The position numbers and the translations under genes were made by a program. From the NCBI GenBank assembly GCA_963840365.1, contig CAWIYQ010000002.1:78777-142776 (forward strand): a DNA stretch of 64,000 nucleotides. Direction: 5' to 3'. The stretch's first letter is position 1. The number at the start of each line of letters is the position of its first letter. This document shows, one piece after another, positions 1 through 25,949 of the stretch. Below the pieces are notes generated by a model. It ran no database searches. It had not been told where the DNA came from and saw only the letters and a program-made list of their open reading frames with translations. This DNA is from an uncultured Thermoleophilia bacterium. Lineage in GTDB: Bacteria > Actinomycetota > Thermoleophilia > Gaiellales > Gaiellaceae.

Positions 1-577
<577 letters not shown>

Positions 578-587
578 AGGAGGAGCC

Positions 588-1439
588 ATGGCCGGACCGC
601 GTTTCTCGGTCTCCGAGTTCACCACCATGCCGCTGTCGTTCGACGAGGACGTGGCGGCCTACACCGCCGGTGGGGCGGAGGGCATCGGCCTCGCAGAGGC
701 GAAGCTGCCGCAGGGTCAGGATGCGGCATCGCTTTCGACCCTGCGTGCCGCCGGCCTGAAGACGGTGATCTGCCTGCCCGAGTGCCTCTCGGTCCTGCCG
801 TTGCCTCCGTTCCCCGGGCCGGAGGAGCCCGAGGAGCGAGTCGCGTCGATCTGCGCCTCGGTGCGCCGGTTCGCCCGGTTCGAGCCCGTGGCCATGCTGT
901 GCCTGACGGGGCCGGTCGGCGACCGCGACCCGGACGCGGCGCGTGCAATCGCCGCCGAGGGTCTGCGCGAGATCGCCTCGGCGGGAGCGCAGGCCGGCGT
1001 CCGCGTCGCGCTCGAGCCGATCCACGCCTCGGCCCGCGACGACTTCACGATGGTCGACACGATCCCGGGTGCGGTCGAGTTCCTCGAATGGGCCGGAGCC
1101 GACATGGGGATCATGTTCGACACCTGGCATCTCTGGGACACGCCGAACGTCCTCGACGAGATCCGCACGCACGCCGGCCGCTTCGCCGGCGTCCACGTGA
1201 ACGACTGGCGCGATCCGACCCGCGGCTGGGACGACCGTGCCCTGCCGGGCGAGGGCGTCATGGACCTGCCCGCGATCTTCGGGGCGCTGGAGGCCGGCGG
1301 GTACGACGGCTGGTACGAGCTCGAGATCTTCTCGTCGGAGACGTATCCCGACTCGCTGCTGCAGCTCGACCCGGCCGAGCTCGTCCGGCGGGGCCACGCC
1401 GGCTTCCTGCGCGCCTGGGAGGCGCGGCACGGGGCCTGA
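588..1439 (+). CDS. Sugar phosphate isomerase/epimerase (xylose isomerase-like TIM barrel)
   Basis: 283-aa ORF with AP-endonuclease-2/xylose-isomerase-like pattern (VALEPIH..., FDTWHLW, GVHVNDW, YDGWYELEIFS). AGGAGG-like RBS ~7 nt upstream. Confidence 0.8.
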   Translation: MAGPRFSVSEFTTMPLSFDEDVAAYTAGGAEGIGLAEAKLPQGQDAASLSTLRAAGLKTVICLPECLSVLPLPPFPGPEEPEERVASICASVRRFARFEPVAMLCLTGPVGDRDPDAARAIAAEGLREIASAGAQAGVRVALEPIHASARDDFTMVDTIPGAVEFLEWAGADMGIMFDTWHLWDTPNVLDEIRTHAGRFAGVHVNDWRDPTRGWDDRALPGEGVMDLPAIFGALEAGGYDGWYELEIFSSETYPDSLLQLDPAELVRRGHAGFLRAWEARHGA

Positions 1440-1712
1440 GTGAGGCAAGACCGCGAAATCCCACCCATGCCGTAAGGCTCTCGTAAATTGTACGAGGGCT
1501 TCGGCGTGGGACGGGGTACAACGGATCTCGGCGGCGGGGCCGGCCCTGGGGAGGGGGTCCCAGGCTAGGGTCGACCCCACCGCCAAACTCGAGAGCCGCG
1601 AGAAAGAGAGTCGGGGCGCGGCCCCGGAAGTCTCCCTCCCCCCAGGCCGGGCGCCCCGACCGAGGGAATATCGGCCGCCCGGCGGTGCCGCTTGAGCGCC
1701 CGGACGGGTGAG

Positions 1713-2603
1713 TCAGCCGACGCGGAGCGTCTGCAGGATCTCGGCTGCGATCTCGAGCGCGATCTCGGCCGGCGTCACGCCGCCGAGGTCGATCCCCACC
1801 GGGCCGTGCACCGAGTCGAGCAGCTCGCCGAGCTCGGCCCGACGCTTCTCGTGCGTCCGCCGCGAGCCGAGCGCGCCGACATAGAACGCGCCGCCCTCGA
1901 CGGCGGCGCGCAGGGCGGGGATGTCGAGCCGCTGCTCGTGCGTCAGCGAGACGACCGCCGTCTCCGGGTCGACCTCGAGCTCGTCGGGCCACGCGACGAC
2001 GATCTCGCCGGCACTGGGCACTCGCTCCGGCGTGGCCAGACCAGGGCGGGGGTCGACGACCACGGTGCGCCAGCCGACCGCGGCGCCGATCGCGCACAGC
2101 GCCTCGGCGATGTCGCCCGCGCCGACCACGAGGAGCCGGGTCGGCGGCGCGACCCGCTCGACGAACACGTCGCCGTCGAGGCCGGTCGCCGCCCGGGCGT
2201 CGTCGTGCCAGCGGCGCCCCGCGTCGGGCCCGCTCACCTGCACGTAGCTCGTGCCGCGCTCGATCGGCGGCGCGCCGGCGAACGGCTCGACGAACACGTC
2301 GATCTCGCCGCCGCACGACAGCCCCACCTTCCAGGCCTGCTCGTCCGTGATCCCGTAGGTGTGCACCTGCGGCGCGTCGCCCTCCAGCACCGCGCGGCAG
2401 TGCTGGGCGACGTCCGCCTCGACGCAGCCGCCGGACACCGAGCCGTAGAGGCGGCCCGAGCGCGTGACAGCGAGCTTCGAGCCGAGGGGCCTCGGAGCGC
2501 TGCGCCGCGACCCGACGACGGTGGCGAGTGCCACGTCCTCTCCCGCCGCGCGCCACTCCTCCGCCTTCGTGAGCACGTCTTCCATAGGCTGAATCGTACG
2601 CAT
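1713..2603 (-). CDS. XdhC/CoxI family accessory protein (molybdenum dehydrogenase maturation)
   Basis: ALATVVGSRRSAPRPLGSKLAV..., GSVSGGCVE and a Rossmann-like LLVVGAGDIAEAL are typical of XdhC_CoxI plus XdhC_C. The start may instead be the internal ATG at 2585 (MEDVLTKAEEW). Confidence 0.85.
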   Translation of the reverse strand: MRTIQPMEDVLTKAEEWRAAGEDVALATVVGSRRSAPRPLGSKLAVTRSGRLYGSVSGGCVEADVAQHCRAVLEGDAPQVHTYGITDEQAWKVGLSCGGEIDVFVEPFAGAPPIERGTSYVQVSGPDAGRRWHDDARAATGLDGDVFVERVAPPTRLLVVGAGDIAEALCAIGAAVGWRTVVVDPRPGLATPERVPSAGEIVVAWPDELEVDPETAVVSLTHEQRLDIPALRAAVEGGAFYVGALGSRRTHEKRRAELGELLDSVHGPVGIDLGGVTPAEIALEIAAEILQTLRVG

Positions 2604-2991
2604 GTCGGACGCCCTGGACGAACTCCTCGCGCGGATCGACGCCGGTGACCTCGGCGACCCGTTGCCGGTGCTCGCCTACGTGGCCGGCGAGGCGCTCGAC
2701 CTCGACGAGGCGGAGCTGAACGGTGCGCGCCGGCGCGCGCTGCTGCTCGTCGCCGCGGGCGGCGATCCGGATCGTGAGCTCGACGTCGACGATCGGGCTG
2801 TCAAGGCGATCGCCTCGGACCTCTACACCGACGAGCGGCGTGACCTGTACGCCCGCTCGCTCGACGCGGTCGTCGTGCGGGTGCGCGACCTGCCGCGCGC
2901 GCGGGAAGCGGCGCTGTTCCTGGCGGGCGACGTCGACCTGGCCTTTCGCCTCTACGCGCTCGGGCTGCTCGCCGAGGAGCTCGCCGGATGA
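2602..2991 (+). CDS. Hypothetical acidic protein (129 aa)
   Basis: Strong G/C third-position bias. Its stop overlaps the ybaK start (ATGA at 2988-2991). No motif recognised. Confidence 0.55.
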   Translation: MSDALDELLARIDAGDLGDPLPVLAYVAGEALDLDEAELNGARRRALLLVAAGGDPDRELDVDDRAVKAIASDLYTDERRDLYARSLDAVVVRVRDLPRAREAALFLAGDVDLAFRLYALGLLAEELAG

Positions 2992-13026: not shown

Positions 13027-13066
13027 CCACCAAGTCCGGCATTTGCAGGCACAATGCCGCGCGGAC

Positions 13067-16000
13067 ATGGTGAAGCGGCTCATCCCTGCGTTCGCGATGG
13101 CGGTGGCGCTTCTGGTGTTCCTGCCGGCCGCGGTCGGGGCATCGGCCGGCCCGCCGGCCTCGATCTCGTTCGATCCCGAGCCGCTTGGTTCGTGGGCAGC
13201 TGTCGGGAACACGCTGAACGTCGACCCCGGCGTCTGGACCGGAGACCCGAGCTCGATCACGGCGCAGTGGTATCGCTGCGACGCAGCCGGCGATCACTGC
13301 GCCGCGATCACCGGTGGGAACAGCCTTTCGTGGACGCTCGTCGCGGGCGATCTCGGCAAGACGCTGTTCGCGCAGGTGACCGCGAGCAACGCCTACGGCT
13401 CGCAGTCGGTGGCGACGTACGCAACAGGCGTCGTCGGCGCTCCGACGATCTCGGCGCAGCCGGTGATCAGCGGCGATGTCAACGTCGACGGATCGACGGT
13501 CAGCGTCTCGACCGGCACCTGGACCGGCTCGCCGACGAGCTACGACTACCAGTGGTTCAGCTGCTCGTCGTCGACGTTCGACTGCTCGCCGATCTCCGGC
13601 GCGACGAGCTCGAGCTTCCAGGTCGACGACACCGCGTTGAACGGCGACTACCTGATGGCCGAGGTCACCGCCTCGGATGCGTCGGGGTCGGCGACGAACC
13701 TCGCACAGCCGTCGTTCGCAGTCGGGATCGTCCGATCAGACGTGATCGGCCCGTTCGTCACGGCTCCTCAGGCTCTGATCACGCCGACGTGGACCGGCGA
13801 CCCGAGCAAGACCGGGAACGTGCTCGTGGGCGACCGCGGCGTGTGGCTCGACCGCCCGACCACCTTCTACTACCAGTGGGCCGACTGCCCCGACTCGAGC
13901 CTGGACAACTGCACCCCGATCGCCGGGGCGAACTCGCTCACGTACGTCGTTCAGTCGAGCGACGCCGGGAAGACGATCGCGTTCGAGGTCGAGGCGCAGA
14001 ACCTCGCCGGCATCGGGCCGAACTACGTCGGGGGAGGCTCACTGGTCGACAACACCTACACCTCCGATTCGGGCCCAGCCTGGGCGCCGGAGCCGAGCGT
14101 GCCCCCGCAGCTCTCGGGTGACGCGGAGGGGGTCGGCAGCGTCCTCCATGTCGATGCGTCTTGGACGGCGCCGCAGGACTCGAACATCACGGTGACCTAC
14201 CAGTGGGCGCGCTGCGACGCGAACGACGCGAACTGCGTCGCGATCGCGGGCGCGACGTCGGCTGACTACACCCTCACCGGCAGCGATCTCGGCAACACCC
14301 TCTACGCGATCGTCGAGGCGACGAACTCGTATGGAGCGACCGCGGCCGTGTCGACGACGATCACGCCGCCGATCGGTGCGCCCGTCAACACCGATCCGCC
14401 GGAGATCACCGGCGACACCGGCGCCTCGGGGAACACGCTCTCCGTCTCGAACGGAACCTGGACGAACAGCCCGGGCTCCTTCGTCTTCCAGTGGTACTCC
14501 TGCGACGCGAACGGCTTCAACTGCTCGGAAATCACGGGTGCGACGACCGACGCCTACCAGACCGTCGGCGGCGACGTCGGCTCGACGCTGTACGCCGAGG
14601 TCGACGCCACGAACGGCCACGGCACCACGTCGACCTTCTCGGCGCTGACCGATGTGATCGGCAGCCCCTTCGATCTGGTCGCCCCGACCTTGAGCTCCAC
14701 CGACGAGTTCGTGGACGAGACGCCGCTTGCCGAGCTCGGGGACACGCTGACCCTCAGCCAGGGCACCTGGAGCGGCAGCCCGAACGCCTTTGCGTATCAG
14801 TGGTACCGCTGCGACCCGAGCTCGCCGACGAAGGCGGATTTCGCCAACTGCAGCGCGATCCCCGGCGCGACGGCGGCCGGCTACACGACGACGAGCAGCG
14901 ACCTCGGCCACACGATCTACGTCGAGCTGAGCGCGACGAACGGCACCGGGACGACGAACGTCTACGCGAACCCGCACGGGTCCGTCGGCGTGCCTCAGCC
15001 GCTCTTCGACGACGGCTCGATCAGCGGCACGCCGAAGGTCGGCTCCGTCCTGACGCTCGTCAACGGCAGCTCGTGGGTGGGAGACACGCCGATCACGTGG
15101 AGCTACGGCTGGAAGCGCTGCGACTCGGGCGGTGCGAACTGCGCGACGATCGCCGATGCGACCTCGCAGACCTACACCCTCACCTCCGACGACCAGGGGC
15201 ACGTCGTCCAGGGGTTCGTCTCCGGCACGAATGTCTGGGGCGGGAACGGCTGGGGGCTCGCCTACGACAGCGCGGTGATCGCCGGTTCCGGCGGAGGCGG
15301 AGGCGGTGGTGGTGGCGGTGGTGGCGGCGGCGGGAGCGGCGGCTCGGTGCCGAACCTCAAGGTCACCTGGACCGCCTCGAGCGCGAGCCCCGCGCCGGGG
15401 GCCGAGGACGACTTCACGATCACCGTCACGAACAACGGCGGAGCGGGTGCGCTCCAGACGCACCTTCGAATCACGCTGCCGAGCACGGTGACGCTGCTCG
15501 GCCCGCCGTATTACGAGCGTGGCTCGGGCTGTACGGGCACGCAGCAGCTGGACTGCGATCTCGACTACATCCCGAACGGCGCCTCGACCGTCGTGAAGTT
15601 CTCGACGAAGGTCAGCGGCAGCGGCTCCCAGGTGCTCAGCGCAACCGTGACGTCCGACCGCGAGTCGGACCCGAGCGACAACACGGCGACCGAGACGATT
15701 CAGGTCGGCTCGGGCTCGGGCTCGGGCCCGCCGAACGGCGGGACAACGGCACCGCCGCTCGCGGCCCCGGTGCTCAAGCAGGTCAAGGCACGAACGCTGA
15801 CCGGCGTCGTCCAGACGCATACAGAGACCGTCGACGGCTCCTTCACCGCGAACGAGCCGCTGAAGCTGACGATGAGCGTCACCCGGCGCTCCTCGACCCG
15901 CAAGCTGAAGCTTCTCAAGGGAACTCGGTTCGCCGGGGGATCGGCCCGCGCAACCTCGACGACCGTCACGAGATCGATCACGCACGCCGGCACGGTCAGC

Positions 16001-16117
16001 TTCCACGCGGTCATCGCCAGGACGTCACTCGCGGCCGGGAAGCGTTACGTGATCCACATCACGGCCAAGAACGCGCACGGCAAGACGGCGACGCTGACCA
16101 TCGCGTTCCGAGCCTGA
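13067..16117 (+). CDS. Large secreted repeat protein: 7 x ~95-aa Cys-pair repeats, poly-Gly linker, DUF11-like domain, unassigned C-terminal domain
   Basis: Signal peptide MVKRLIPAFAMAVALLVFLPAAVGASA. Repeats share W-T-G/S-x-P...Y-Q-W-x-x-C...C-x-x-I-x-G-A-T/N...Y...D-x-G...V-x-A-x-N. G15 linker follows. NLKVTWTAS...ITVTNNGGAGA...SDPSDNTA resembles DUF11. Confidence 0.85.
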   Translation: MVKRLIPAFAMAVALLVFLPAAVGASAGPPASISFDPEPLGSWAAVGNTLNVDPGVWTGDPSSITAQWYRCDAAGDHCAAITGGNSLSWTLVAGDLGKTLFAQVTASNAYGSQSVATYATGVVGAPTISAQPVISGDVNVDGSTVSVSTGTWTGSPTSYDYQWFSCSSSTFDCSPISGATSSSFQVDDTALNGDYLMAEVTASDASGSATNLAQPSFAVGIVRSDVIGPFVTAPQALITPTWTGDPSKTGNVLVGDRGVWLDRPTTFYYQWADCPDSSLDNCTPIAGANSLTYVVQSSDAGKTIAFEVEAQNLAGIGPNYVGGGSLVDNTYTSDSGPAWAPEPSVPPQLSGDAEGVGSVLHVDASWTAPQDSNITVTYQWARCDANDANCVAIAGATSADYTLTGSDLGNTLYAIVEATNSYGATAAVSTTITPPIGAPVNTDPPEITGDTGASGNTLSVSNGTWTNSPGSFVFQWYSCDANGFNCSEITGATTDAYQTVGGDVGSTLYAEVDATNGHGTTSTFSALTDVIGSPFDLVAPTLSSTDEFVDETPLAELGDTLTLSQGTWSGSPNAFAYQWYRCDPSSPTKADFANCSAIPGATAAGYTTTSSDLGHTIYVELSATNGTGTTNVYANPHGSVGVPQPLFDDGSISGTPKVGSVLTLVNGSSWVGDTPITWSYGWKRCDSGGANCATIADATSQTYTLTSDDQGHVVQGFVSGTNVWGGNGWGLAYDSAVIAGSGGGGGGGGGGGGGGGSGGSVPNLKVTWTASSASPAPGAEDDFTITVTNNGGAGALQTHLRITLPSTVTLLGPPYYERGSGCTGTQQLDCDLDYIPNGASTVVKFSTKVSGSGSQVLSATVTSDRESDPSDNTATETIQVGSGSGSGPPNGGTTAPPLAAPVLKQVKARTLTGVVQTHTETVDGSFTANEPLKLTMSVTRRSSTRKLKLLKGTRFAGGSARATSTTVTRSITHAGTVSFHAVIARTSLAAGKRYVIHITAKNAHGKTATLTIAFRA
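15284..15346 (+). repeat. (GGN)n simple sequence repeat encoding GSGGGGGGGGGGGGGGGSGGS
   Basis: Read directly: ggttccggcggaggcggaggcggtggtggtggcggtggtggcggcggcgggagcggcggctcg. Confidence 0.95.
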
Positions 16118-16151
16118 GCGCGCAACTCGGGCCGCTACTCTTGCACGGCTC

Positions 16152-16240
16152 GGAGGGGTGGCAGAGCGGTCGAATGCGGCGGTCTCGAAAACCGTTATCC
16201 GTCGTTAGGCGGATCGAGGGTTCAAATCCCTCCCCCTCCG
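16152..16240 (+). tRNA. tRNA-Ser (anticodon CGA)
   Basis: Acceptor GGAGGGG/CCCCTCC, anticodon loop CTCGAAA, long variable arm (class II), T-arm GAGGG-TTCAAAT-CCCTC. No encoded CCA. Confidence 0.95.
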
Positions 16241-16244
16241 CTTC

Positions 16245-16285
16245 GGCGTGTCGGGTCTCGCTCTAGCGCGGGGACCCGACACGCC
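16245..16285. terminator. 13-bp inverted repeat between the convergent tRNA-Ser and ferredoxin gene (possible bidirectional terminator)
   Basis: ggcgtgtcgggtc ... gacccgacacgcc. It spans the ferredoxin stop codon (16263-16265). No U-tract. Confidence 0.35.
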
Positions 16286-16490
16286 CGGCAGCCGCGAGTC
16301 TCAGCGCCTGCTTCGGGCAGCTCGCGACGGCGCGGCGCGCGTGCCCTCTCAGCGTCGGCGGGATCGGCGCCGGGTCGACGATCGGGTACCCCCAGTCGTC
16401 CACCGAGATCCGCTCGGGGAAGAGCTCTGCGCAGAACCCGTGGCCGTCGCACGCGATCGGGTCGACCGAGATGGTCTCGAACTGTCTCAC
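16263..16490 (-). CDS. Small ferredoxin (CxxHxxC...CP cluster motif)
   Basis: VRQFETISVDPIACDGHGFCAELFPE...ASCPKQAL. GTG start overlaps the upstream stop (GTGA at 16487-16490). Confidence 0.75.
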   Translation of the reverse strand: MRQFETISVDPIACDGHGFCAELFPERISVDDWGYPIVDPAPIPPTLRGHARRAVASCPKQALRLAAAGRVGSPR

Positions 16491-17728
16491 CGGCGCGCCT
16501 TCGGCACGGGCAGGATGCCGCGCGTCCGGCGCCGGCACGCGCGGCGGCGATGGCGGTCGACCTCGTCGGTGAGCACGTCGAGCGCGCTGTCGACGAACCG
16601 TGCCACGCCGTCAGGGTGGCGGCAGGCGCCGCGTCGGCGCACCTGGCTCGTCCAGCGCCTCAGCTGCTCCACTGCTTCCCCGTCGCCCTCCGCCAGCCGC
16701 TCGAGGGCGCCGGCGATCGCCGGCAGCCCGTGGGTGCACGGCCCGCACTGTCCGGCGCTCTCGCCCGCGAGGTAGCGCACGACGCGCGCGCACTCGCCCA
16801 GCCCACAGGTGTCGCGGGGGAGCGCGACGATCGCGCCGGCTCCGAGCATGTCGGGCGTCAGGCGAAGAGACTCGGCGCCGTTGGGCGTGAGCCAGGCTCC
16901 GAAGTAACCGCCGACCAGCACGCCGGCGAGGTCGGCCGTGAAGCCGCCCGCCCTCCGGACGAGCTCTCCCAGCGTGCTGCCGAAGGCGATCTCGTAGACG
17001 CCGCGGCGGGCGACGGCACCGTTCAGGGTCACCAGCGCCGTTCCCGGCGCGTCGGGCGTGCCGACCGAGCGGAACCACTTCGCACCGAAGCGAGTCACGA
17101 GCGCGAGGTGGGCGAGCGTCTCGACGTTCTGAACCAGCGTCGGCGCACCGCGCAGCCCGCGCTCGAACGGATACGGCGGCTTCGTCGTCGGACGCGCGGG
17201 GCCGCCTGCGAGCGCCTGGAGCAACGCTGTCTCCTCGCCGGTCACGAATCCGTCGGGCACCATCGCGACCTCGACGCGTATGTCGTCGCGCCGCTCCTGC
17301 AGCGCCTCTTCGAGTGACTGGCGCTCCGCATGCGCGCTGCGCGCGACGGCCACGATCGCCGTGCGCGCGCCGACGGCGCGCGCGGCGGCGACGACCCCGT
17401 CCACGACCAGATGAGGCGCGAGCCTCATCAGCACCTTGTCCTTGCCGCTCGCCGGCTCGCCCTCGGCGCCGTTCGCGACCACGATCGGGCGGCCGCGGGC
17501 GCTTGCGACGCTCCGCAGCTTCGTCGCGACGTCGAACGCCGCGCCGCCGCGGCCGCGAAGCGACGCGCGCTCGACCACGGCCGCGAGGTCGCCGGGGTCC
17601 GGCAGCGGCCCCAGCCGCTCGAGATGGCGAGCCGCCGTCGTCCGGCCGTTTGCGTCGATCCCGGCCAGGAGACGCTCGGTCCCCACGGGTGCGCGGCTCG
17701 CCGCGCGCGGCCGCGTCTTCGTCGTCAC
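16487..17728 (-). CDS. NuoF-like protein (NADH dehydrogenase subunit F-type FMN/NADH and 4Fe-4S binding domains)
   Basis: LRGRGGAAFDVATKL (GxGGAGF-like), PIVVANGAEGEPASGKD, SLBB-like middle part, ESAGQCGPCTHG plus a distal Cys (4Fe-4S). GTG start overlaps the upstream stop. Confidence 0.85.
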   Translation of the reverse strand: MTTKTRPRAASRAPVGTERLLAGIDANGRTTAARHLERLGPLPDPGDLAAVVERASLRGRGGAAFDVATKLRSVASARGRPIVVANGAEGEPASGKDKVLMRLAPHLVVDGVVAAARAVGARTAIVAVARSAHAERQSLEEALQERRDDIRVEVAMVPDGFVTGEETALLQALAGGPARPTTKPPYPFERGLRGAPTLVQNVETLAHLALVTRFGAKWFRSVGTPDAPGTALVTLNGAVARRGVYEIAFGSTLGELVRRAGGFTADLAGVLVGGYFGAWLTPNGAESLRLTPDMLGAGAIVALPRDTCGLGECARVVRYLAGESAGQCGPCTHGLPAIAGALERLAEGDGEAVEQLRRWTSQVRRRGACRHPDGVARFVDSALDVLTDEVDRHRRRACRRRTRGILPVPKARR

Positions 17729-18822
17729 TGGTCGTCTCCCTGGGCCGTTGCCGCGGCGATCCCGGTCACCGAGTGCGCTGCGGCGTCGATCCTCAGCCCG
17801 AAGTCGATGCGAAGGCGATGGCCGGCGCCGTCGCGCACGAGCGCGACGACGCGCGACCCCTCGAGGGCGACCACGGACCCTGTGTAGACGGAGCGCGTCG
17901 TCGCAGGGACGAACGAGACGCCGCTCGCGGTCATCGAGACGCCCCCGCCGTTCGGCGCCCCGCGCAGGTCGATCCGTGCGGCGCCTTTCGGCCCGCCGCG
18001 GAGCCGCACCTGGATCTGTACGTCGACGAGCCCGTTGGCGGCCTGGCGCTCGGTCACCGTCCCGGCGATCGCGGACACGAACGAGGTGGGCGGCGCGGGA
18101 GCGTGTGCGACGCCGACGAGCGACACGCTACGGGTTACGCCCGAATGCGCGCGAGCGAGCACGGCCGTCGGCGTGCCCGCCCGCCGGGCCCAGCCGCGCT
18201 GCAGCGGCCCGTTCTGATACCAGGCGGCGATCGCGAGCGGCGCCGCGAGTGCCGCCGCAGCTGCGAGGGCGCGGATGCCGGGCCGGCCGCGGCTCCGCAC
18301 GACACGCGCGAGCACCGCGAGGACGACGGCGCCGAGGCACGCGAAGCCGAGCAGCGCGAACCAGCCGAAGCGGGCGTCGCTGCCCGTCCCGAAGGCGTGC
18401 AGGAGGGCGACCGGCCAGGCAGCGTACGCGGCCCAGTGGACCAGGCGCCACGCGCGCGCCGGCACGCGTCGCCGGGCGAGACTGGTGACGACGAGCGCGA
18501 GGAGCAGGTCGAGCGAGATCGCCCCGAGCGCGAGCCAGAGCGGCCGATACGGAGAGGCGAACGGCACGACTGCGGCGGCGAGCGAGATCGGCGCGAAGCC
18601 GTCGGCGACCGTCGTGACGACATGCACGGCGACAAAGACGATCGCGAGCAGCGTCAGGTTGCGATGCGCGTCGGCGACGGCGAACCGCGGCCACTTCCGC
18701 CCACGCAGGCGCACGGCGACGCCGACGCCCATGACAACCGATGCCGTGAGCAACAGCAACGCGACGGTGCCCGTGCCACGCGTCACGAACCACAGCGTCT
18801 TCGTGCTCGCGAGGATCAGCAT
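17725..18822 (-). CDS. Ferric-reductase-like transmembrane domain protein (di-heme b, MsrQ/YedZ-like) with an unassigned ~150-aa C-terminal domain
   Basis: Six hydrophobic segments. His pairs HRNLTLLAIVFVAVH and HWAAYAAWPVALLH are spaced 13-14 residues apart. ATG at 18822. The N-terminal extension in the track ORF is rejected. Confidence 0.8.
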   Translation of the reverse strand: MLILASTKTLWFVTRGTGTVALLLLTASVVMGVGVAVRLRGRKWPRFAVADAHRNLTLLAIVFVAVHVVTTVADGFAPISLAAAVVPFASPYRPLWLALGAISLDLLLALVVTSLARRRVPARAWRLVHWAAYAAWPVALLHAFGTGSDARFGWFALLGFACLGAVVLAVLARVVRSRGRPGIRALAAAAALAAPLAIAAWYQNGPLQRGWARRAGTPTAVLARAHSGVTRSVSLVGVAHAPAPPTSFVSAIAGTVTERQAANGLVDVQIQVRLRGGPKGAARIDLRGAPNGGGVSMTASGVSFVPATTRSVYTGSVVALEGSRVVALVRDGAGHRLRIDFGLRIDAAAHSVTGIAAATAQGDDQ

Positions 18823-19748
18823 GCGATCGCCTCGCGGTCGTCGGGCCAGCCGCAGAGCGTGACGACCGCGCCGTCCAAGCCGACGAGCCGCGCCGGCAGG
18901 CGCCGGCGCCCGAGCCAGGCCGGTGCCTCCTCGCCGAGAACGAGCGCGGCCGTGGTCGCGACGTTCGCGTCGACGCAGGTGGCTGCGGCGACGGAGACCG
19001 TCCGCCACGGGGCCGCCGCAGGCGCCCCCGTCAGCGGGTCGAGGACGTGGTGTGCCTCACCCGCGTCGGTGCGCCAGCGACGGCCGGTCGTGCTCGAGGT
19101 CGCGAGCCCGCCTTGCGTGATCGCGACGCGCGGGCCGCGCCCGTCGAGGCTCGTTTCGTGGAGCTCCGAGACGAGGATCGACCAGCCGCCCTCCGGTGCC
19201 TCGCCGGCGACGGCGACGTCACCGCCGAGCCCGACGAGGACGCCGGTGTGCAGCTCGCGCGCGATCCGCGTGGCTGCCCGGTCGGCGGCGAACGCCTTTG
19301 CGGTAGCACCGAGATCGAGCTCGACGCCCGAGGGCACCCGCACGCCGGGCGGGTCGTCGTAGAGCTCGATCTGCCGCCAGCGGCGGGGAGCCGGTGGTCG
19401 TGGCACGACGTGCCAGGTGTCGCGCGCGCGCACGAGAGCGAACGTCATGTCGTAACCGGCCGCGCGCAGCTCCGACCCGAGCGTCGGGTCGACGAGGCCG
19501 TTCGTGACGTGGGCAGCACGCAGGCCGACCGCGAGGGCCTCGTGCAGATCGCGCCCGATCTCGACCCGGCGACCGCGGGCCCGGTTGACCTCGGCGAGCT
19601 CGGAGTCGTCGCGGAAGCGGCTGCAGGCACGGTCGATGCGGTCGACCTCCTCCTCGAGCAGGCCGCGGGCGCGCTCGAGGAGCCGAGGCGTCGGGACGGC
19701 GACGACCGCGGTCGTACCGAGCGCGGGGAAGGAGGCGCGTGACGTCAC
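18816..19748 (-). CDS. apbE: FAD:protein FMN transferase (ApbE family)
   Basis: FPALGTTAVVAV, GLVDPTLG, LDLGATAKAFAADR and LVGLGGDVAV are ApbE signatures. GTG at 19748 overlaps the upstream stop. No signal peptide or lipobox is visible from this start. Confidence 0.85.
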   Translation of the reverse strand: MTSRASFPALGTTAVVAVPTPRLLERARGLLEEEVDRIDRACSRFRDDSELAEVNRARGRRVEIGRDLHEALAVGLRAAHVTNGLVDPTLGSELRAAGYDMTFALVRARDTWHVVPRPPAPRRWRQIELYDDPPGVRVPSGVELDLGATAKAFAADRAATRIARELHTGVLVGLGGDVAVAGEAPEGGWSILVSELHETSLDGRGPRVAITQGGLATSSTTGRRWRTDAGEAHHVLDPLTGAPAAAPWRTVSVAAATCVDANVATTAALVLGEEAPAWLGRRRLPARLVGLDGAVVTLCGWPDDREAIAC

Positions 19749-20089
19749 GAGCCACCGGAGACGACGACCGGGGATGCGGCCGGCGCCGGCGCGGGAGCAG
19801 GCGCGGGTGCCGGGCTCGAAGGAGAAGGCGCCGGTGCGGCTTCGCGCACGCCGACGAGTGGCGGTGCGGGTGCGACGACGGGCGCCTCGTGCGTCGTGAG
19901 TACCGGCGCCGTCGCGGGAGCCGGCGGCGCCGCCCGCCGCGGGTGGGTCGAGGCCGCCGCGAGCGCGGTGAAGATGCCGGCCAGCGCCGCCGTGATGGCG
20001 ACGAGGGCCCCGGTGACGCGGCGGACGCGCCGAGTGGCGGCGCCGCGGGCGGCGACGGCATGGATCTGGTCGGGGACGTGGTGCGTCAT
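19745..20089 (-). CDS. Membrane-anchored Pro/Ala-rich mini-protein (114 aa)
   Basis: MTHHVPDQ...RRVRRV then TM segment TGALVAITAALAGIFTALAAA, then a PAPAPAPAPAPA-type linker ending ...SPVVVSGGS*. High GC3. Fills the gap between the kinase and ApbE. Confidence 0.5.
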   Translation of the reverse strand: MTHHVPDQIHAVAARGAATRRVRRVTGALVAITAALAGIFTALAAASTHPRRAAPPAPATAPVLTTHEAPVVAPAPPLVGVREAAPAPSPSSPAPAPAPAPAPAASPVVVSGGS

Positions 20090-20142
20090 ACAAGACACCG
20101 TTCCCGACCCGAATGAGACGGTGATGAGGCGCGGGCAGGCCT

Positions 20143-21546
20143 CTACTCGGCGAGTGCCGCCATCGGCGCCTCTGGCCGTTCCGACCCGGAGGCGTCGAGG
20201 GGCACCGAGAGCCACACGTCGGTGCCGCCGCCTGCAGCTGTGCCGCCGACGCCGACGCGGCCGCCGTGGGCGCGGGCGATCGCGGCCACGATCGCGAGAC
20301 CGAGACCCGCGCCGGGCGTCGTGCGGGAGTCGTCGGCGCGACTGAAGCGGTCGAAGGCCCGGTCGGCGAACCCCGGCGGAAAGCCGCGGCCGTGATCGGC
20401 GACGTGGAGCTCGAGCGCCCCGGCCCGGCCGACGGCCTGCAACGAGACGGTGCCCGCCCCATGCGTGAGCGCGTTCTCGACGAGATTCCCCACAGCCTGC
20501 TCGAGCCGCAGCGGGTCGGCGTCGACAAGCGGCACGTTCGAGGGCCGCACCTCGATCGAGCGGCCGAGCTGCTCGGCCCGATGGGAGAAGCGGTCGCGTA
20601 CCGTCTCGAGCAACGCGCCGGCGTCGACCGCTTCGCGGCGAAGTGGGAGGCCGTTCTGGTCCGAGCGCGCGATCAGCAGCAGGTCCTCGGCGAGCCGGCT
20701 GAGGCGCTCGGTCTCTTCGGCGGCGGAGCGAACGGCAGCCTCGAGCTCTTCGTGCGAACGCGTCCGCCGCAGCGCCAGCTCGAGCTCCGCCCGCAGGAGC
20801 GCAAGCGGCGTCCGAAGCTCATGGCTCGCGTCGGCGACGAATCGCCGCTCGTGCTCGAGTGCGCTCTCGAGTCGACCGAGCATCTCGTTCAGCGTCTCCG
20901 CAAGCGCCGAGATCTCGTCGTGGGTCGGGGGGACGGGCAGCCTGCGGCCGGGCGTCGTCGCGCTGATCACGCTTGCGCGCCGTCGCATCGCCTCGACCGG
21001 CCTGAGCGCCGCCGCGGCGAGGGCATAACCGGCGAGGACGGCGATCAGGAGCGCGGCGGGCACGGCAAAGAGGAACTCTCGCGCCAGGCGATGCAACGTC
21101 TCCGACCGGGCCTCGACCGACCGCCCGACCACGAGCGCCGCAGGACGGCCGTCGACGCGGATCGGGACGGCGAGCAGCCGCCAGTCGCCGCGCAGGCCCT
21201 GGACGTCCCGGATCGCGCGGTGCTGGCTCCCATCGACGACGCGGCGCAGGTCGTTCCCTTCGAGCAGCGGCGGCAGGCTCGCCGGCGAGGAGTCCTCGGT
21301 CGTCCCGTTCGCCAGCTGGACCTGCGCGATCGTCGGGCCGTCGCTGACGTCCCGGTCGAGGAGCGCCTTTCCCTCGTCGGCGTGCGAGGTTGCTTCTGCG
21401 ACCTGCGCGCGCAGGTTCTGGTCGACGGAGGAGAGCAGCGCAGCGCCGACGCGCAGGTAGATGACGACACCCATGGTCGCGAACACGAGCACCATCGCGA
21501 CGGCGAACGGCAGCGTCAGCCGCACGCGGATCGGCAGCGAGCTCAC
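20143..21546 (-). CDS. Sensor histidine kinase (2 TM, HAMP, HisKA, HATPase_c)
   Basis: H-box FVADASHELRTPL, N-box NLVENALTHG, G-boxes DHGRGFP and GAGLGLAIV. GTG at 21546 overlaps the regulator stop (GTGA). Confidence 0.9.
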   Translation of the reverse strand: MSSLPIRVRLTLPFAVAMVLVFATMGVVIYLRVGAALLSSVDQNLRAQVAEATSHADEGKALLDRDVSDGPTIAQVQLANGTTEDSSPASLPPLLEGNDLRRVVDGSQHRAIRDVQGLRGDWRLLAVPIRVDGRPAALVVGRSVEARSETLHRLAREFLFAVPAALLIAVLAGYALAAAALRPVEAMRRRASVISATTPGRRLPVPPTHDEISALAETLNEMLGRLESALEHERRFVADASHELRTPLALLRAELELALRRTRSHEELEAAVRSAAEETERLSRLAEDLLLIARSDQNGLPLRREAVDAGALLETVRDRFSHRAEQLGRSIEVRPSNVPLVDADPLRLEQAVGNLVENALTHGAGTVSLQAVGRAGALELHVADHGRGFPPGFADRAFDRFSRADDSRTTPGAGLGLAIVAAIARAHGGRVGVGGTAAGGGTDVWLSVPLDASGSERPEAPMAALAE

Positions 21547-22220
21547 GAACCGTCCTTGCGCAGCCGGTAGCCGATCCCACGGACGGTCTCGATCGATGAT
21601 CGCCCGAAGGGTCGGTCGATCTTCTCGCGGAGGTAGCGGATGTACACGTCGACGACGTTCGAGCGGCTCTCGAACGCGATGTCCCACGCGCCTTCGATCA
21701 GCTGCAGCCGCGACAGGGTCTGGCCTGCACGCCGCATCAGCAGCTCGAGCATCGCGAACTCGCGCGCCGACAGCTCCACCTCCGTCTCGCCGCGCCAGAC
21801 GCGGTGCTGGGCGGGATCGAGCCGCAGGTCGCCGACGTTCAGGACGGCCGGGCGCTCGACCGGGCCGCGGCGGACGACGGCCCGGAGCCGCGCAAGCAGC
21901 TCCGCGAGCGAGAAGGGCTTCGTCAGGTAGTCGTCGGCGCCCGCGTCGAGCGCCCCGACCCGGTCGCCGATCGCGTCCCGGGCGGTGAGCATCAGCACCG
22001 GCGTCCACAGCTCCTTCTCGCGCAGCTGCCGCAGCACCTCGAAGCCGTCGAGGCCGGGCAGCATCACGTCGAGCACGATCGCGTCGTACGGCGCCGTCTG
22101 CGCGAGCAGCACTGCCTCGTCGCCGCGAGAGGCGACGTCGGTGGGATGCCCCTCCTCGCGAAGCGCCCGCGCGACGAGCGCGGCGAGCTTCGGCTCGTCT
22201 TCGACGACCAGCACACGCAC
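21543..22220 (-). CDS. OmpR/PhoB-family response regulator
   Basis: MRVLVVEDE...DAIVLDVMLPGLDG...LTARD...KPF receiver domain plus winged-helix output (VDVYIRYLREKID...IETVRGIGYRL). Confidence 0.95.
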   Translation of the reverse strand: MRVLVVEDEPKLAALVARALREEGHPTDVASRGDEAVLLAQTAPYDAIVLDVMLPGLDGFEVLRQLREKELWTPVLMLTARDAIGDRVGALDAGADDYLTKPFSLAELLARLRAVVRRGPVERPAVLNVGDLRLDPAQHRVWRGETEVELSAREFAMLELLMRRAGQTLSRLQLIEGAWDIAFESRSNVVDVYIRYLREKIDRPFGRSSIETVRGIGYRLRKDGS

Positions 22221-22299
22221 GGTGGGATTGTTCCTGCGTTCGTCGCGACTCGCCCGGCCCTCTCATGTGCGTCTCATCGAACGGTGCTGACCTGAAGGC

Positions 22300-22944
22300 A
22301 TGGACGCGCCCATCGAGGTTGATCGCCCACGTGTCCGGAGCCGGGGCGCCCGGCTGCTACGCGGGGGTGCGGAGGGCAATGCCCGCCTGACCGCGGTCAC
22401 CGCCGCCGTGCTGCTCGTTCTGCTCGCGGCCGAAGGAGCGACGATCCCGTTCGTCCATCAGCAGCTGACGCTGCACATGGCGCTCGGCCTCGCCCTGATC
22501 CCGCCCGTGCTGCTGAAGCTCGGCACGACCGGCTGGCGGTTCTTCCGCTACTACCTCCGCGATCCGGAGTACGTGCGGCGAGGCCCACCGCACGCGCTGC
22601 TGAGGCTCCTCGTGGCGCCGCTCACCGTCGCCTCGACGGTCGTCCTCTTCGGCACCGGCGTGCTGATCGTCGCCATGCACCCGCAGCGGGGTTTCGTCGT
22701 CGGCCTGCACAAGGCGAGCTTCATCGTCTGGTTCGGGGCGATGGCCGTCCACGTGCTCGGGCACGTGCTCGAGCTGCCCGGGCACGTTCGCGCCGACCGC
22801 GAGAGCGACCTCCCGGGTGCCGGCGTTCGCTCGTTCCTGCTTGCAGCCGCGCTTGTCGCCGGCGCCGTCGTGGCGATCGCCGCACTGCCTTCCATCCACC
22901 AGTGGGTTGACTGGGCCGCACAGCATCGTCAGTTCGACCACTAG
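22300..22944 (+). CDS. Integral membrane protein, 4-5 TM, conserved His residues, unknown function
   Basis: Hydrophobic segments with His in or near the membrane (FVHQQLTLHMALG; GLHKASFIVWFGAMAVHVLGHV). No family assigned. Confidence 0.65.
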   Translation: MDAPIEVDRPRVRSRGARLLRGGAEGNARLTAVTAAVLLVLLAAEGATIPFVHQQLTLHMALGLALIPPVLLKLGTTGWRFFRYYLRDPEYVRRGPPHALLRLLVAPLTVASTVVLFGTGVLIVAMHPQRGFVVGLHKASFIVWFGAMAVHVLGHVLELPGHVRADRESDLPGAGVRSFLLAAALVAGAVVAIAALPSIHQWVDWAAQHRQFDH

Positions 22945-24901
22945 AACCGTTGCCGCCTTCGCGGCAGTCGTCGTTGCCGGCACGGCGCTCGTGGCGTGCG
23001 GTGCAACGCCTGCCCATACGGCCGCGACGACCGTGGCGACGACCAAGGCGAAGCAGATGGTGCGCCACGTGGTGCCAAAGCCGTCGTCGCCCGCGGCACG
23101 GCTGCTCGGCCTCCCGCCGGTGGCGGCGGGCCCGGTGCCCGGGTACGTGCTGATCGCCGATCGCAACAACGATCGCCTGCTGATCGTCTCGCCCGCAGGC
23201 CGCGTGGTCTGGCGGTTCCCGCGCCCGGGCGACGTGCGCGCGGGGCAGTCGTTTCACGACCCGGACGACGCATTCTTCACGCCCGGCTACCGCGCGATCT
23301 CGATCAACGAGGAGTTCAACGAGACCGCAAGCCTGGTGGCAGTTCGGGCCCACCGGATCGTCTGGAGCTTCGGCCACGCGGGCGTCGCCGGCTCCGCGTT
23401 CGGCTACCTCTCGAACCCCGACGACGCCTACCTGCTGAAGAACGGCCTGCTGATGGTCGCCGACATCAAGAACTGCCGCGTGTTGTTCATCAACCATGCG
23501 AAGAAGGTCGTGCGCGAGATCGGTCACGCAGGCGACTGCACGCATGACCCGCCGCTCGGTCTCTCGTCCCCGAACGGCGCGACGCCGCTCGCGGACGGCG
23601 GTGTGCTGGTGACCGAGATCGGCGGCTGGGTCGACCGGATCAACGCCTCGGGTCATCTGGTCTACGCGCTGCGCACGCCGACGACGTACCCGTCGGACGC
23701 GCAGCTGCTCCCGAACGGCGACATCCTGGTCGCCGGCTTCAACACGCCGGGCCGCGTCGACGAGCTGACGCCCACCGGCCGGATCGTCTGGACGTACGAC
23801 CCGCCGTCCGGCCCGGGCGCGCTCGACCGCCCCTCGCTCGCCGTGCGTTGGCCGAACGGGATGATCGCCGTCACCGACGACTGGCATCACCGGATCGTCG
23901 TGATCGATCCGCACACGAAACGGATCGTCTGGTCGTATGGCCACCTCGGGGCGCCGGGCACGGCGGCCGGATACCTCGACAAGCCCGATGGGCTCGATCT
24001 GCTGCCGGCAACGGTCGCCGGGCATCGCGCGCGCCGGCCCGCGCCGGTCCGGGCGTCGGCCGCCGCTGCGCCGGCGCTTCGCGTCGCGCGGGTCGGGAGC
24101 GTGCCGGCGCCGCTCGCGCGCGCTTCCGTCGTCGCCCTGCCCGGCGGACGTCTCGTCGTCGCGGGCGGCCTCGTCGGCGGCTCCTCGACCGACCAGGTGC
24201 TCGCCGGGCCGCCGCAAGCGCTGCGGCGGGTCGGGAGCCTGCCGGTTCCCGGCCACGATGCGGCTGCCGCGCTCGTCGGCGGCGGCGTCGACGTGTTCGG
24301 CGGCGGCCAGTCGTCGTCCGTCGACACGGTCGTCCGGATCGACCCGTCGACGGGAGCCGCGCGCGTGACCGCGCATCTGGACGAGCCGCTCTCCGATCTG
24401 GGCGTCGCCGTCGTCGGCCGCACGCCGTATCTGGTCGGGGGCTACACGGGCTCGCGCTTCGCGAGCGCCGTCCTCCGCTACGCCGGGACGGGCCATACGA
24501 CGACGGCGGCTCGGCTGCCGGCCGGGCTCCGCTACGCCGGCGTGGCGGCGCTAGGTGGGACGATCTACGTCGCCGGCGGCCTGACCACGTCCGGCGAGAT
24601 CGCCGCGGTCGAGGCCGTCGACCCGGGCACGGGAGCCGTCCGGCGGATCGCGACGTTGCCGACGCCGAACGCCTACGGAGCTCTCGTCGCGTTCCGCGGG
24701 GCCCTGTATCTGATCGGCGGCAAGACGGCCGCGGGCACGCCGGTGGCCACGGTGCTGCGCATCGATCCGGGCTCCGGACGCGTCGCGCGGGTCGCGACGT
24801 TGCCGTCGCCGCTTGCCGAGCCTGCCGCCGTTGCGCGCACCGTCGATGTGATCGTGGTCGGCGGCGAGGGCAGCGACGCGGTATACAGCCTGCGGCCGTG
24901 A
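22907..24901 (+). CDS. Lipoprotein with an N-terminal beta-propeller (NHL/ASST-like) and C-terminal Kelch-like repeats
   Basis: Lipobox AGTALVAC|G. Repeated ...DRLLIVSPAGRVVW / HRIVVIDPHTKRIVW blades, then GG..G........V / Y..GG Kelch-like repeats. The TTG start at 22907 is tentative (the track ATG at 22817 would overlap the upstream gene by 128 nt). Confidence 0.7.
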   Translation: MTGPHSIVSSTTRTVAAFAAVVVAGTALVACGATPAHTAATTVATTKAKQMVRHVVPKPSSPAARLLGLPPVAAGPVPGYVLIADRNNDRLLIVSPAGRVVWRFPRPGDVRAGQSFHDPDDAFFTPGYRAISINEEFNETASLVAVRAHRIVWSFGHAGVAGSAFGYLSNPDDAYLLKNGLLMVADIKNCRVLFINHAKKVVREIGHAGDCTHDPPLGLSSPNGATPLADGGVLVTEIGGWVDRINASGHLVYALRTPTTYPSDAQLLPNGDILVAGFNTPGRVDELTPTGRIVWTYDPPSGPGALDRPSLAVRWPNGMIAVTDDWHHRIVVIDPHTKRIVWSYGHLGAPGTAAGYLDKPDGLDLLPATVAGHRARRPAPVRASAAAAPALRVARVGSVPAPLARASVVALPGGRLVVAGGLVGGSSTDQVLAGPPQALRRVGSLPVPGHDAAAALVGGGVDVFGGGQSSSVDTVVRIDPSTGAARVTAHLDEPLSDLGVAVVGRTPYLVGGYTGSRFASAVLRYAGTGHTTTAARLPAGLRYAGVAALGGTIYVAGGLTTSGEIAAVEAVDPGTGAVRRIATLPTPNAYGALVAFRGALYLIGGKTAAGTPVATVLRIDPGSGRVARVATLPSPLAEPAAVARTVDVIVVGGEGSDAVYSLRP

Positions 24902-25698: not shown

Positions 25699-25787
25699 GG
25701 AGAGGTGTCCGAGCGGTCTAAGGAGCGCGACTGGAAATCGCGTACGTGCCGAAAGGTGCGTCGAGGGTTCAAATCCCTCCCTCTCCG
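25699..25787 (+). tRNA. tRNA-Ser (anticodon GGA)
   Basis: Acceptor GGAGAGG/CCTCTCC, anticodon loop CTGGAAA, long variable arm, T-arm GAGGG-TTCAAAT-CCCTC. Confidence 0.95.
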
Positions 25788-25793
25788 CTGCAC

Positions 25794-25855: not shown

Positions 25856-25946
25856 GGAGAAGTGGCCGAGTGGCTGAAGGCGGCGCCCTGCTAAGGCGTT
25901 AGGTGGGGAAATCCCTGCCTCGAGGGTTCGAATCCCTCCTTCTCCG
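25856..25946 (+). tRNA. tRNA-Ser (anticodon GCU)
   Basis: Acceptor GGAGAAG/CTTCTCC, anticodon loop CTGCTAA, long variable arm, T-arm GAGGG-TTCGAAT-CCCTC. Confidence 0.95.
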
Positions 25947-25949
25947 CTC

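Follow-up and report, generated by a model that had tools for sequence, protein, structure and literature searches.

Flavinylation-associated gene clusters in which a Ferric_reduct (PF01794) membrane protein is encoded beside apbE, the gene of an FAD:protein FMN transferase, were described as "MsrQ-like" by Meheust et al. in 2021 and are broadly distributed in Actinobacteria (PMC8238504). These clusters typically include an FMN_bind gene, and 31 of them contain a NuoF-like protein with a PF10589 domain that likely serves for NAD(P)H entry (PMC8238504); di-heme AlphaFold models were discussed by Huang et al. in 2024 (PMC11334425). Here, we analyzed a 64,000-nt stretch of contig CAWIYQ010000002.1 (hereafter the window) from an uncultured Thermoleophilia bacterium of the family Gaiellaceae, in which seven genes, all on the minus strand and spanning 22220 to 16263, encode an OmpR/PhoB-type response regulator, a sensor histidine kinase, a small Pro/Ala-rich anchored protein (hereafter the mini-protein), an ApbE-family protein, a Ferric_reduct-domain cytochrome, a NuoF-like protein and a small ferredoxin. 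The locus resembles MsrQ-like clusters in its PF01794 di-heme protein by apbE, its actinobacterial origin, the NuoF-like protein found in a subset of them and the presumed path from the cytosol to an extracytosolic flavin. In contrast to MsrQ-like clusters, which usually have an FMN_bind gene and a fused FAD/NAD domain, it has no FMN_bind gene, and instead contains a tail-only mini-protein ending in Ser-Gly-Gly-Ser (SGGS), a cytochrome fused to a predicted beta-barrel, an ApbE without a signal peptide and, in addition, a dedicated two-component system with an identifiable putative operator. We propose, with slightly better than even confidence, that the locus encodes a regulator-controlled, NAD(P)H-driven transmembrane electron export system of the MsrQ-like kind, in which a tethered peptide tag would be all that is left of the flavin carrier.

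The gene positions and overlaps given in the initial annotation of this DNA were reproduced, and its family assignments held in an HMM search, in which calls were accepted above the Pfam gathering scores and each family call on the seven products passed. The open reading frames (ORFs) mostly overlap: by GTGA between regulator and kinase, mini-protein and ApbE, cytochrome and NuoF-like protein, and NuoF-like protein and ferredoxin, and by the 7-nt ATGCTGA between ApbE and cytochrome, an overlap that places the locus within the operational definition of MsrQ-like clusters. The kinase and mini-protein genes are separated by 53 nt. None of the seven products matched FMN_bind (PF04205) at E <= 0.1, nor did the mini-protein when the limit was relaxed to E <= 1, in agreement with the initial annotation, which had seen no such domain; the separate FMN_bind gene that typically accompanies MsrQ-like proteins is accordingly absent among the seven products. 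The 2021 pipeline dropped ApbE and FMN_bind genes lacking a signal peptide or lipidation site (PMC8238504). The window ApbE would not pass this filter and no FMN_bind protein is encoded with it, and signal-less, FMN_bind-less loci of this sort may have escaped that census. The initial annotation had further stated that no characterized system has this composition; the class had in fact been described bioinformatically (PMC8238504), but the statement stands insofar as none has been characterized experimentally.

Several other described systems share single features with the locus. In Escherichia coli, HprSR (YedVW), a CopRS/CusRS-type pair, adjoins and controls MsrPQ (YedYZ), a ferric-reductase-family heme b protein that feeds the envelope, together with its partner. 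The window locus likewise places such a pair by a predicted heme b membrane protein, and HprR is among the best NCBIfam matches of its regulator, but no MsrP molybdoenzyme gene is present and the HprR equivalog cut-off is not reached (208 versus 353). E. coli MsrPQ uses Fre or quinol as the cytosolic donor and has no ApbE, barrel or tethered tag, whereas the donor here would be the NuoF-like protein with the ferredoxin. NOX and STEAP proteins (SpNOX 8qta, STEAP1/2) share with the window cytochrome six transmembrane (TM) helices, two bis-His sites with a spacing of 13-14 residues and, in the proposed route, transfer from cytosolic NAD(P)H towards the outer face. In contrast to them, the putative dehydrogenase is separate (NuoF-like protein plus ferredoxin) and not fused, there is no equivalent of the first NOX helix, and the barrel is predicted to reach the outside through an additional helix at the C-terminal end of the membrane domain. 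In engineered Flavin-tag constructs (PMC12052999, PMC9400968) and the C-terminal extensions of FMN_red proteins (PMC11334425), a short terminal site of the [S/T]GA[S/T] type outside FMN_bind suffices for modification of its last Ser/Thr, and the end of the mini-protein resembles such a site; the putative tag here, by comparison, reads SGGS with nothing after it and would make up the entire functional terminus of a naturally occurring, membrane-tethered low-complexity protein. Listeria FmnB/PplA and multi-flavinylated proteins (PMC9973259, PMC10339131) are also Gram-positive systems in which an ApbE-type enzyme modifies an anchored extracytosolic carrier that relays electrons outwards. Their carriers, unlike the mini-protein, are folded FMN_bind domains on lipoproteins, and their electrons are drawn through Ndh2/EetAB from quinones, whereas the proposed source here is a di-heme cytochrome supplied by the NuoF-like protein and the ferredoxin.

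Conservation of the module and its mini-protein

A species-level scan with one genome per species returned 173 relatives, and the best 80 of these 173, which were inspected, were metagenome-assembled genomes of Gaiellales, Solirubrobacterales and other Thermoleophilia, with a few Acidimicrobiales and one Limnocylindria. In protein databases, the cytochrome including its C-terminal domain has more than 1300 homologues, from Gaiellaceae where the source is named. The seven window proteins were mapped by tblastn onto 83 species-level loci. A mini-protein ORF lies in 82 of them, directly upstream of ApbE or, where ApbE is absent, of the cytochrome. ApbE lies directly upstream of the cytochrome in 69 of 81 testable loci, the NuoF-like gene directly downstream of it in 78 of 80, and the ferredoxin gene is present in 78. 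A histidine kinase gene immediately precedes the module in 55 of 78 testable loci (36 with at least 50% identity and 19 with 30-50%), and a remote relative with a barrel identity of 38% still has an upstream two-component pair, with a different sensor domain. These data indicate that the gene set is a conserved module and not a chance neighbourhood. The apbE-less clusters that retain the mini-protein upstream of the cytochrome are L004, L006, L035, L039, L041, L050, L053, L055, L056, L061, L065 and L082; in L055, L056 and L082, tblastn detected neither the NuoF-like protein nor the ferredoxin, and the L056 contig stops about 20 nt past the cytochrome.

The window mini-protein consists of a basic N-terminus (ARxAAxRRVRR), one TM helix and a Pro/Ala-rich tail that closes with PVVVSGGS before the stop codon. 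Across loci, the N-terminus remains basic (ARDAAxxRxRRxT or RTRRW) and a short STHxKK or APGRS motif follows the helix, after which the tail of 54-120 residues varies freely in low-complexity sequence (Pro/Ala, Ser/Gly, NTG or PQ repeats) apart from a small PPL(V/A) motif. Its end is near-invariant and reads P(V/A)(V/A)(V/S)SGGS-stop. Of 70 mini-proteins, 62 finish in SGGS and the others in SGGT, TGGS, TGGT, TGVS, SGSS or SASS; Ser or Thr closes all 70 and also opens the four-residue motif in every case. The degenerate end SASS is that of L004, which has no adjacent apbE. The L062 mini-protein, which lies outside this tally, ends in the canonical TGAT. The tail of a remote relative, L089 (3662-4018, plus strand), contains tandem GASGAT/GVSGAT units with five canonical SGAT sequences, followed by a terminal SGGS-AP, which suggests a possibly multi-flavinylated tail. 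Lys and Arg number 6.0 in the 20 residues before the TM helix versus 3.1 after it, and this distribution indicates an N-in/C-out topology. A profile of the N-terminus matched three of 5.8 billion proteins, being too short to inform, and a search of the available literature found no earlier account of SGGS-ended small proteins or of this cluster.

ApbE recognizes the motif D-x-x-[S/T]-G-A-[S/T], the last Ser/Thr of which takes the FMN (PMC12052999, PMC11334425). Seven-residue unstructured terminal tags are fully flavinylated by ApbE, loss of the motif Asp has a minor effect and an Ala-to-Val change keeps about 50% flavinylation (PMC12052999, PMC9400968); in FMN_red proteins, the flavinylation sites lie on unstructured C-terminal extensions (PMC11334425). 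The mini-protein is a candidate substrate because its terminal variation resembles the [S/T]GA[S/T] pattern of the ApbE motif, and because it occupies the slot that is filled by an FMN_bind substrate in locus L084. There, the position upstream of a signal-less ApbE holds a protein made of a P/A/S-rich linker and an FMN_bind domain (PF04205, 30 bits), which carries DIVSGAT and whose stop codon overlaps the ApbE start. Judging from these features, the mini-protein is likely the flavinylation target, and it looks like a substrate reduced to anchor, linker and tag. The acceptor, which the initial annotation had left open, now has in the mini-protein its best candidate by position, by the SGGS end and by the L084 slot.

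By its domain and active-site motifs (LDLGATAKA, GGLATS, HHxLDP and DANxAxT, conserved in 63 orthologues), the window ApbE fits the FAD:protein FMN transferase family; against the E. coli equivalog NF007774 it scored 46, short of the cut-off of 498. It begins nine residues before the conserved (M/L)GT strand, that is, within the domain, and inspection of the N-terminus showed no signal peptide, as had been noted before. The same signal-less start applies to all orthologues, since the mini-protein ORF ends at the ApbE start, its stop codon overlapping or abutting that start; across loci, the two ORFs overlap by 4 nt at one extreme and stand about 10-50 nt apart at the other. The usual criteria point to a cytoplasmic enzyme, like the second ApbE of Klebsiella (PMC12052999).

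The cytochrome, its predicted beta-barrel and the putative electron donors

The cytochrome exceeds the PF01794 cut-off of 28 bits, and its bis-His pairs, H53/H67 (14 apart) and H129/H142 (13 apart), are invariant in all four residues among 57 homologues, which confirms the two His pairs read in the initial annotation. An AlphaFold2 (AF2) model of the full-length protein places helices at residues 7-36, 46-74, 93-115, 122-145, 153-176 and 181-204, and Foldseek matched the membrane domain to SpNOX 8qta and STEAP1/2 with probabilities of 0.75-1.0. The protein conforms to the ferric reductase superfamily pattern of two bis-His heme sites in a six-helix bundle, with heme binding predicted. No FAD_binding_8, NAD_binding_6 or NAD_binding_1 domain was found in it by Pfam, so that the dehydrogenase part of a NOX is missing.

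The His-bearing helices of NOX and STEAP proteins run from inside to outside. Relative to NOX, the window cytochrome lacks the first helix and has an extra sixth helix of 24 residues ahead of its C-terminal domain. There are five to six Arg/Lys in each of its loops 1-2, 3-4 and 5-6 and almost none in the other loops. On the basis of the loop charges, the correspondence with NOX/STEAP helices and the extra sixth helix, an invariant GPxQxGWAxRAGTP segment and the C-terminal domain are predicted to lie outside the cell, a placement that the initial annotation had left undecided.

Residues 247-360 of the cytochrome are confidently modelled by AF2, with a 57-sequence alignment, as an 8-stranded up-and-down beta-barrel (mean pLDDT 83.5, core >90). 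The barrel has no Pfam match, a profile search of PDB sequences returned nothing, and Foldseek gave no match with E < 0.03, the best TM-scores of about 0.5 being to small-ligand barrels such as those of PloI4, streptavidin and allene oxide cyclase. An HMMER scan of 1.84 billion cluster representatives recovered only 268 relatives, and in most of those inspected the barrel follows a Ferric_reduct domain or the sequence is a piece of a protein of that kind. The exception, P0227 of L084, joins an additional TM helix and the barrel to an NqrB/RnfD-like membrane part and is encoded beside the FMN_bind and ApbE genes described above; P0227 reached a sub-threshold 24.6 bits for PF03116, and a barrel-less relative in L085 reached 32.9 bits. 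By these associations, the barrel appears as an accessory of two different flavinylation-associated membrane modules, and it could serve as a flavin dock, an acceptor-binding site or a contact with the cell wall. The idea that the C-terminal domain is a hidden FMN_bind domain was rejected, as it has neither a Pfam nor a PDB profile match and is modelled as an all-beta barrel.

The NuoF-like protein combines an FMN/NADH site, an SLBB region (26.5 bits against a cut-off of 27) and a Cys-rich FeS region, with GRGG, GEP and GEET-type motifs conserved. It meets the domain-level models PF01512 and PF10589 and scores 212 against the TIGR01959 cut-off of 558.65, and because it falls so far below the latter it is, judged by profile scores, not a true NuoF; no NuoE-type gene is present in the cluster. 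Cys 308, 328, 331, 369 and 398 are invariant in 74 sequences. The initial annotation had noted a 4Fe-4S motif here, and the family holds (NADH_4Fe-4S passes), but not the canonical motif, as the first Cys of CxxCxxC is Ala. The ferredoxin has the motif C14-x2-H17-x2-C20...C58-P, in which C14, C20 and C58 are conserved in 100% and H17 in 89% of 71 sequences. Because neither protein has a signal sequence, both are assigned to the cytoplasm.

Two-component system, putative operator and surroundings

Among NCBIfam models, the regulator was closest to cztR_silR_copR (TIGR01387; 241 against a cut-off of 279.2), followed by HprR, PhoB and PmrA, and the kinase scored 248.7 against the cut-off of 292.55 of cztS_silS_copS (TIGR01386). 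The kinase has two TM helices, a periplasmic domain of about 125 aa, HAMP, HisKA and HATPase_c. A role as a Cu/Ag sensor was rejected, since the subfamily scores lie below the cut-offs and no ligand residues are conserved, and for the same reasons the pair does not qualify as a heavy-metal system of the CopRS/CusRS/SilRS/CzcRS type. In L063 (873-4834) and similar Solirubrobacterales loci, an opposite-strand gene of about 2 kb, which reads by eye as a receiver-GGDEF-EAL protein, lies between the regulator and kinase genes.

The gap between the kinase and mini-protein genes contains the direct repeat CTCATCACCGTCTCAT, which conforms to YTCAT-N6-YTCAT with an 11-bp period and lies 23 nt upstream of the mini-protein ATG. 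A second copy, CTCATGTGCGTCTCAT, precedes a divergently transcribed gene on the other side of the regulator. Direct repeats with an 11-bp period are the typical site geometry of the OmpR/PhoB family. The pattern occurs twice in the whole window versus 0.03 expected, and in 1.1 Mb of related loci, scanned with the pattern relaxed a little to allow T or C as the final base of the first half-site, 76 matches were found, almost exclusively at the mini-gene and divergent-gene positions; some loci have a further copy in front of the regulator gene. The box before the mini-protein gene is present in 35 of 36 loci with an orthologous kinase, in 4 loci without an adjacent kinase and in none of 19 with a divergent kinase, and in the divergent-gene orientation it is present in most loci having that gene. 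The L063-type loci lack the box, and their regulator probably has a different operator. Together with the kinases found upstream in 55 of 78 loci, this conserved repeat upholds the earlier link of the redox genes to the two-component system. The single operon assumed in the initial annotation is not sustained: because the gap carries a conserved box, which is kept in the four kinase-less loci, the redox genes most likely have their own regulator-dependent promoter and do not rely on read-through. The closeness of the boxes to the start codons suggests short-leader or leaderless mRNAs, and a simple scan of 16000-22500 for sigma-70 promoters and terminators gave nothing useful. An 8-mer, GAACGGTG, follows both repeat copies (20096-20103, 9 nt after the box, and 22279-22286, 1 nt after), and may be due to chance or part of a promoter.

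The divergent gene adjoins the regulator gene in many loci. Its protein has no Pfam or NCBIfam match and 3381 homologues that are all named hypothetical, and contains the invariant residues H59, H137, H151 and H155, with H137 and H151 14 residues apart; it may be another heme or metal protein. Given the repeat in front of each, this gene and the redox module probably belong to one regulon, and the regulator, through binding to these boxes, probably controls both.

The remaining surroundings in the window are unrelated to the module and include KAS, LigD, GroES, Ig/DUF11 surface protein, Kelch/NHL protein and PaaK-like genes. A tRNA-Ser(cga) gene (16152-16241, plus strand) starting 21 nt past the ferredoxin stop codon marks the end of the module, and two further tRNA-Ser genes are located on the same strand at 25699-25788 (gga) and 25856-25947 (gct). 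A predicted surface protein of 1024 aa (13043-16117, plus strand) converges on the module; it has about eight Ig-like repeats (AIR9/SCAB-Ig matches) in which W(Y/F)RCD...C..I.GA units recur, together with a stretch of some 20 consecutive Gly and a DUF11/CARDB domain. The divergent membrane gene is followed at 22817-24901 (plus strand) by a gene for a 694-aa Kelch/NHL beta-propeller protein, which is found at the equivalent position in L001 and not in L002.

Table 1 Features of the redox module in the window and of the second barrel architecture in L084
Feature	Position	Strand	Basis
OmpR/PhoB-type response regulator, 225 aa	21543..22220	-	Response_reg 104 bits, Trans_reg_C 86 bits
Sensor histidine kinase, 467 aa	20143..21546	-	HAMP 31.5, HisKA 53, HATPase_c 84 bits
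YTCAT-N6-YTCAT direct repeat CTCATCACCGTCTCAT, putative regulator box/promoter of the redox module	20113..20128	-	Pattern count and conservation
Mini-protein, 114 aa, proposed ApbE substrate	19745..20089	-	One TM helix, C-terminal PVVVSGGS-stop
Codons of terminal Ser-Gly-Gly-Ser, putative flavinylation tag	19748..19759	-	Sequence reading
ApbE-family FAD:protein FMN transferase, 310 aa	18816..19748	-	PF02424 152.6 bits
Ferric_reduct-domain cytochrome, whole gene	17725..18822	-	PF01794
Ferric_reduct (MsrQ/NOX/STEAP-type) membrane domain	18211..18822	-	PF01794 33.7 bits; six predicted TM helices
Predicted 8-stranded beta-barrel, residues 247-360 of the cytochrome	17743..18084	-	AF2 model
NuoF-like protein, 413 aa	16487..17728	-	Complex1_51K 120.8, NADH_4Fe-4S 59.1 bits
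Small ferredoxin, 75 aa, CxxHxxC...CP single-cluster type	16263..16490	-	Fer4_15 46.3 bits
Second direct-repeat copy CTCATGTGCGTCTCAT	22262..22277	+	22 nt upstream of divergent gene at 22300
Divergent polytopic membrane protein, 214 aa	22300..22944	+	No Pfam or NCBIfam family
Second barrel architecture (L084)	Logan SRR33270667 contig 1-2807		P0227, linker + FMN_bind (DIVSGAT), signal-less ApbE

Proposed electron route and alternative explanations

In the proposed route, the NuoF-like protein would act as a flavo-FeS enzyme that oxidizes NAD(P)H in the cytoplasm and passes single electrons to the CxxHxxC...CP ferredoxin, which would deliver them to the inner heme of the cytochrome and from there to the outer heme. 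On the outer face, the electrons would meet the fused barrel and the C-terminal tail of the mini-protein. ApbE, translationally coupled to the mini-protein, would attach FMN to the last Ser of ...VVSGGS, and this FMN, on its flexible tether of 54-120 residues, would be loaded at the cytochrome or barrel and would carry electrons to an extracytoplasmic acceptor. Expression would be driven by the OmpR-type regulator bound at the repeats before the mini-protein gene and the divergent His-rich membrane gene. The sequence of carriers drawn in the initial annotation (NAD(P)H, FMN/FeS, ferredoxin, di-heme protein, flavinylated acceptor) is still the best reading. Gene order, families, conservation, the terminal motif, the predicted folds and the repeat are what the sequences show; the cofactors, the direction of flow, flavinylation of the tail and the side on which it would occur, docking at the barrel, regulator binding and the acceptor are what we infer from them. 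A bolder version, which we regard as possible but on balance doubtful, sees in the mini-protein a "flavin on a leash", the first ApbE substrate without a folded flavin-binding domain: a single-pass protein with a disordered tail and FMN-Ser, which would be loaded in the cytoplasm by the signal-less ApbE before export, and would shuttle electrons from the outer heme or barrel to acceptors in or beyond the cell wall, with the entire device turned on by a dedicated envelope sensor.

Several observations weigh against the proposed route. The weakest link is that an enzyme which appears to be cytoplasmic would have to flavinylate a Gly-for-Ala tag: the window tag V-V-V-S-G-G-S departs from D-x-x-[S/T]-G-A-[S/T] in having Gly in place of Ala and no Asp, and the predicted side of ApbE does not match the predicted extracytoplasmic position of its target end, which requires either modification of the tag before export or an unrecognized export route for ApbE. 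Arg-Arg precedes the TM helix in 48 of 72 mini-proteins and is absent in 19; Tat export of a mini-protein flavinylated in the cytoplasm was therefore rejected as a general rule, being possible in some clades. About 12 clusters retain the mini-protein without an adjacent ApbE. The barrel co-occurs in L084 with a full FMN_bind partner and need not be a flavin pocket, and the FeS site of the NuoF-like protein is non-canonical in its first Cys. Moreover, no His, Cys or Met in the periplasmic domain of the kinase is conserved among 28 orthologues, and the domain gives no clue to the signal; no conserved terminal-acceptor gene was found near the module, the genes past the ferredoxin varying between loci.

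Some of these points would be accommodated if the mini-protein were not flavinylated at all but a structural or assembly subunit, for example one that docks on the barrel by its hydrophobic strand and SGGS or that anchors the complex, with ApbE serving another target such as an unlinked FMN_bind protein, or having a non-transferase role. We consider this unlikely, though it is in keeping with the departure of the tag from the ApbE motif, with the predicted separation of a cytoplasmic ApbE from an outside tail and with the apbE-less clusters that retain the mini-protein. The barrel itself also offers a conserved SGVS, within MTASGVSFVP; however, this lies in a predicted beta-strand and is replaced by SDVA or SRVR in distant barrels, and we rejected it as a flavinylation site. 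What speaks for the tail as substrate is that its variation, with Ser/Thr kept first and last and only Gly/Ala-type changes between, resembles the pattern of variation of ApbE motifs, that the canonical sequence does appear in L062 (TGAT) and, in tandem, in L089 (SGAT), and that the mini-protein gene is positionally equivalent to an FMN_bind gene. The distinctly less probable alternative of a NOX- or MsrQ-like device would make flavin, tail and barrel accessory, and the outer heme itself would hand electrons to the final substrate, which could be O2 (giving superoxide), Fe(III)/Cu(II) or an unlinked periplasmic enzyme, for instance MsrP. The membrane domain does match the SpNOX and STEAP folds, and in STEAP and NOX proteins the outer heme is where metals or O2 are reduced. 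The two-component pair comes closest to the Cu/Ag and HprRS subfamily, and HprRS controls msrPQ in E. coli. Some MsrQ-like clusters are in addition linked to VIT1 iron uptake (PMC8238504). Against such a device, the conserved neighbours of the module include no gene for MsrP (Oxidored_molyb), VIT1 or a metal transporter, the kinase lacks conserved metal ligands, and the near-universal mini-protein and mostly retained ApbE suggest that the flavin step is integral.

A very improbable explanation is that the mini-protein and ApbE are one gene for an anchored, exported ApbE, split by a sequencing error or by programmed frameshifting. Such an architecture would account for the missing signal peptide, and L001 has a fused call of 421 aa, but the L001 assembly has other evident frameshifts, with the regulator and kinase genes fragmented. 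In the window and about 80 other loci, the mini-protein ends with SGGS-stop in its own frame, the junction to ApbE varies, and the mini-protein with its SGGS persists where ApbE is absent; the conserved frame and the variable junction contradict a frameshifted gene.

Compared with described flavinylation systems, the new elements of this locus are the tail-only, SGGS-ended putative substrate, the extracytoplasmic barrel as predicted, the signal-less ApbE and a sensor pair with a recognizable operator. This variant is conserved, in at least 83 genomes of Thermoleophilia type, across Thermoleophilia, an abundant and mostly uncultured soil class. Its compact set of four to five genes is suited to heterologous co-expression tests, and the locus defines a putative operator, yTCAT-N6-yTCAT, for an uncharacterized CopRS/HprRS-like sensor pair and ties an unannotated, predicted extracytoplasmic barrel domain to two flavinylation-associated membrane modules. 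Nqr, Rnf, NosR and Gram-positive extracellular electron transfer all depend on flavinylation by ApbE. In the 2021 survey, about 4% of the genomes with apbE still lacked a recognized substrate (PMC8238504). If the mini-protein is indeed the substrate, the rule for ApbE substrates would extend to tail-only tags, the orphan signal-less ApbEs of Thermoleophilia would be explained, and the module would represent a mechanically new wiring of a membrane cytochrome to the outside of the cell.

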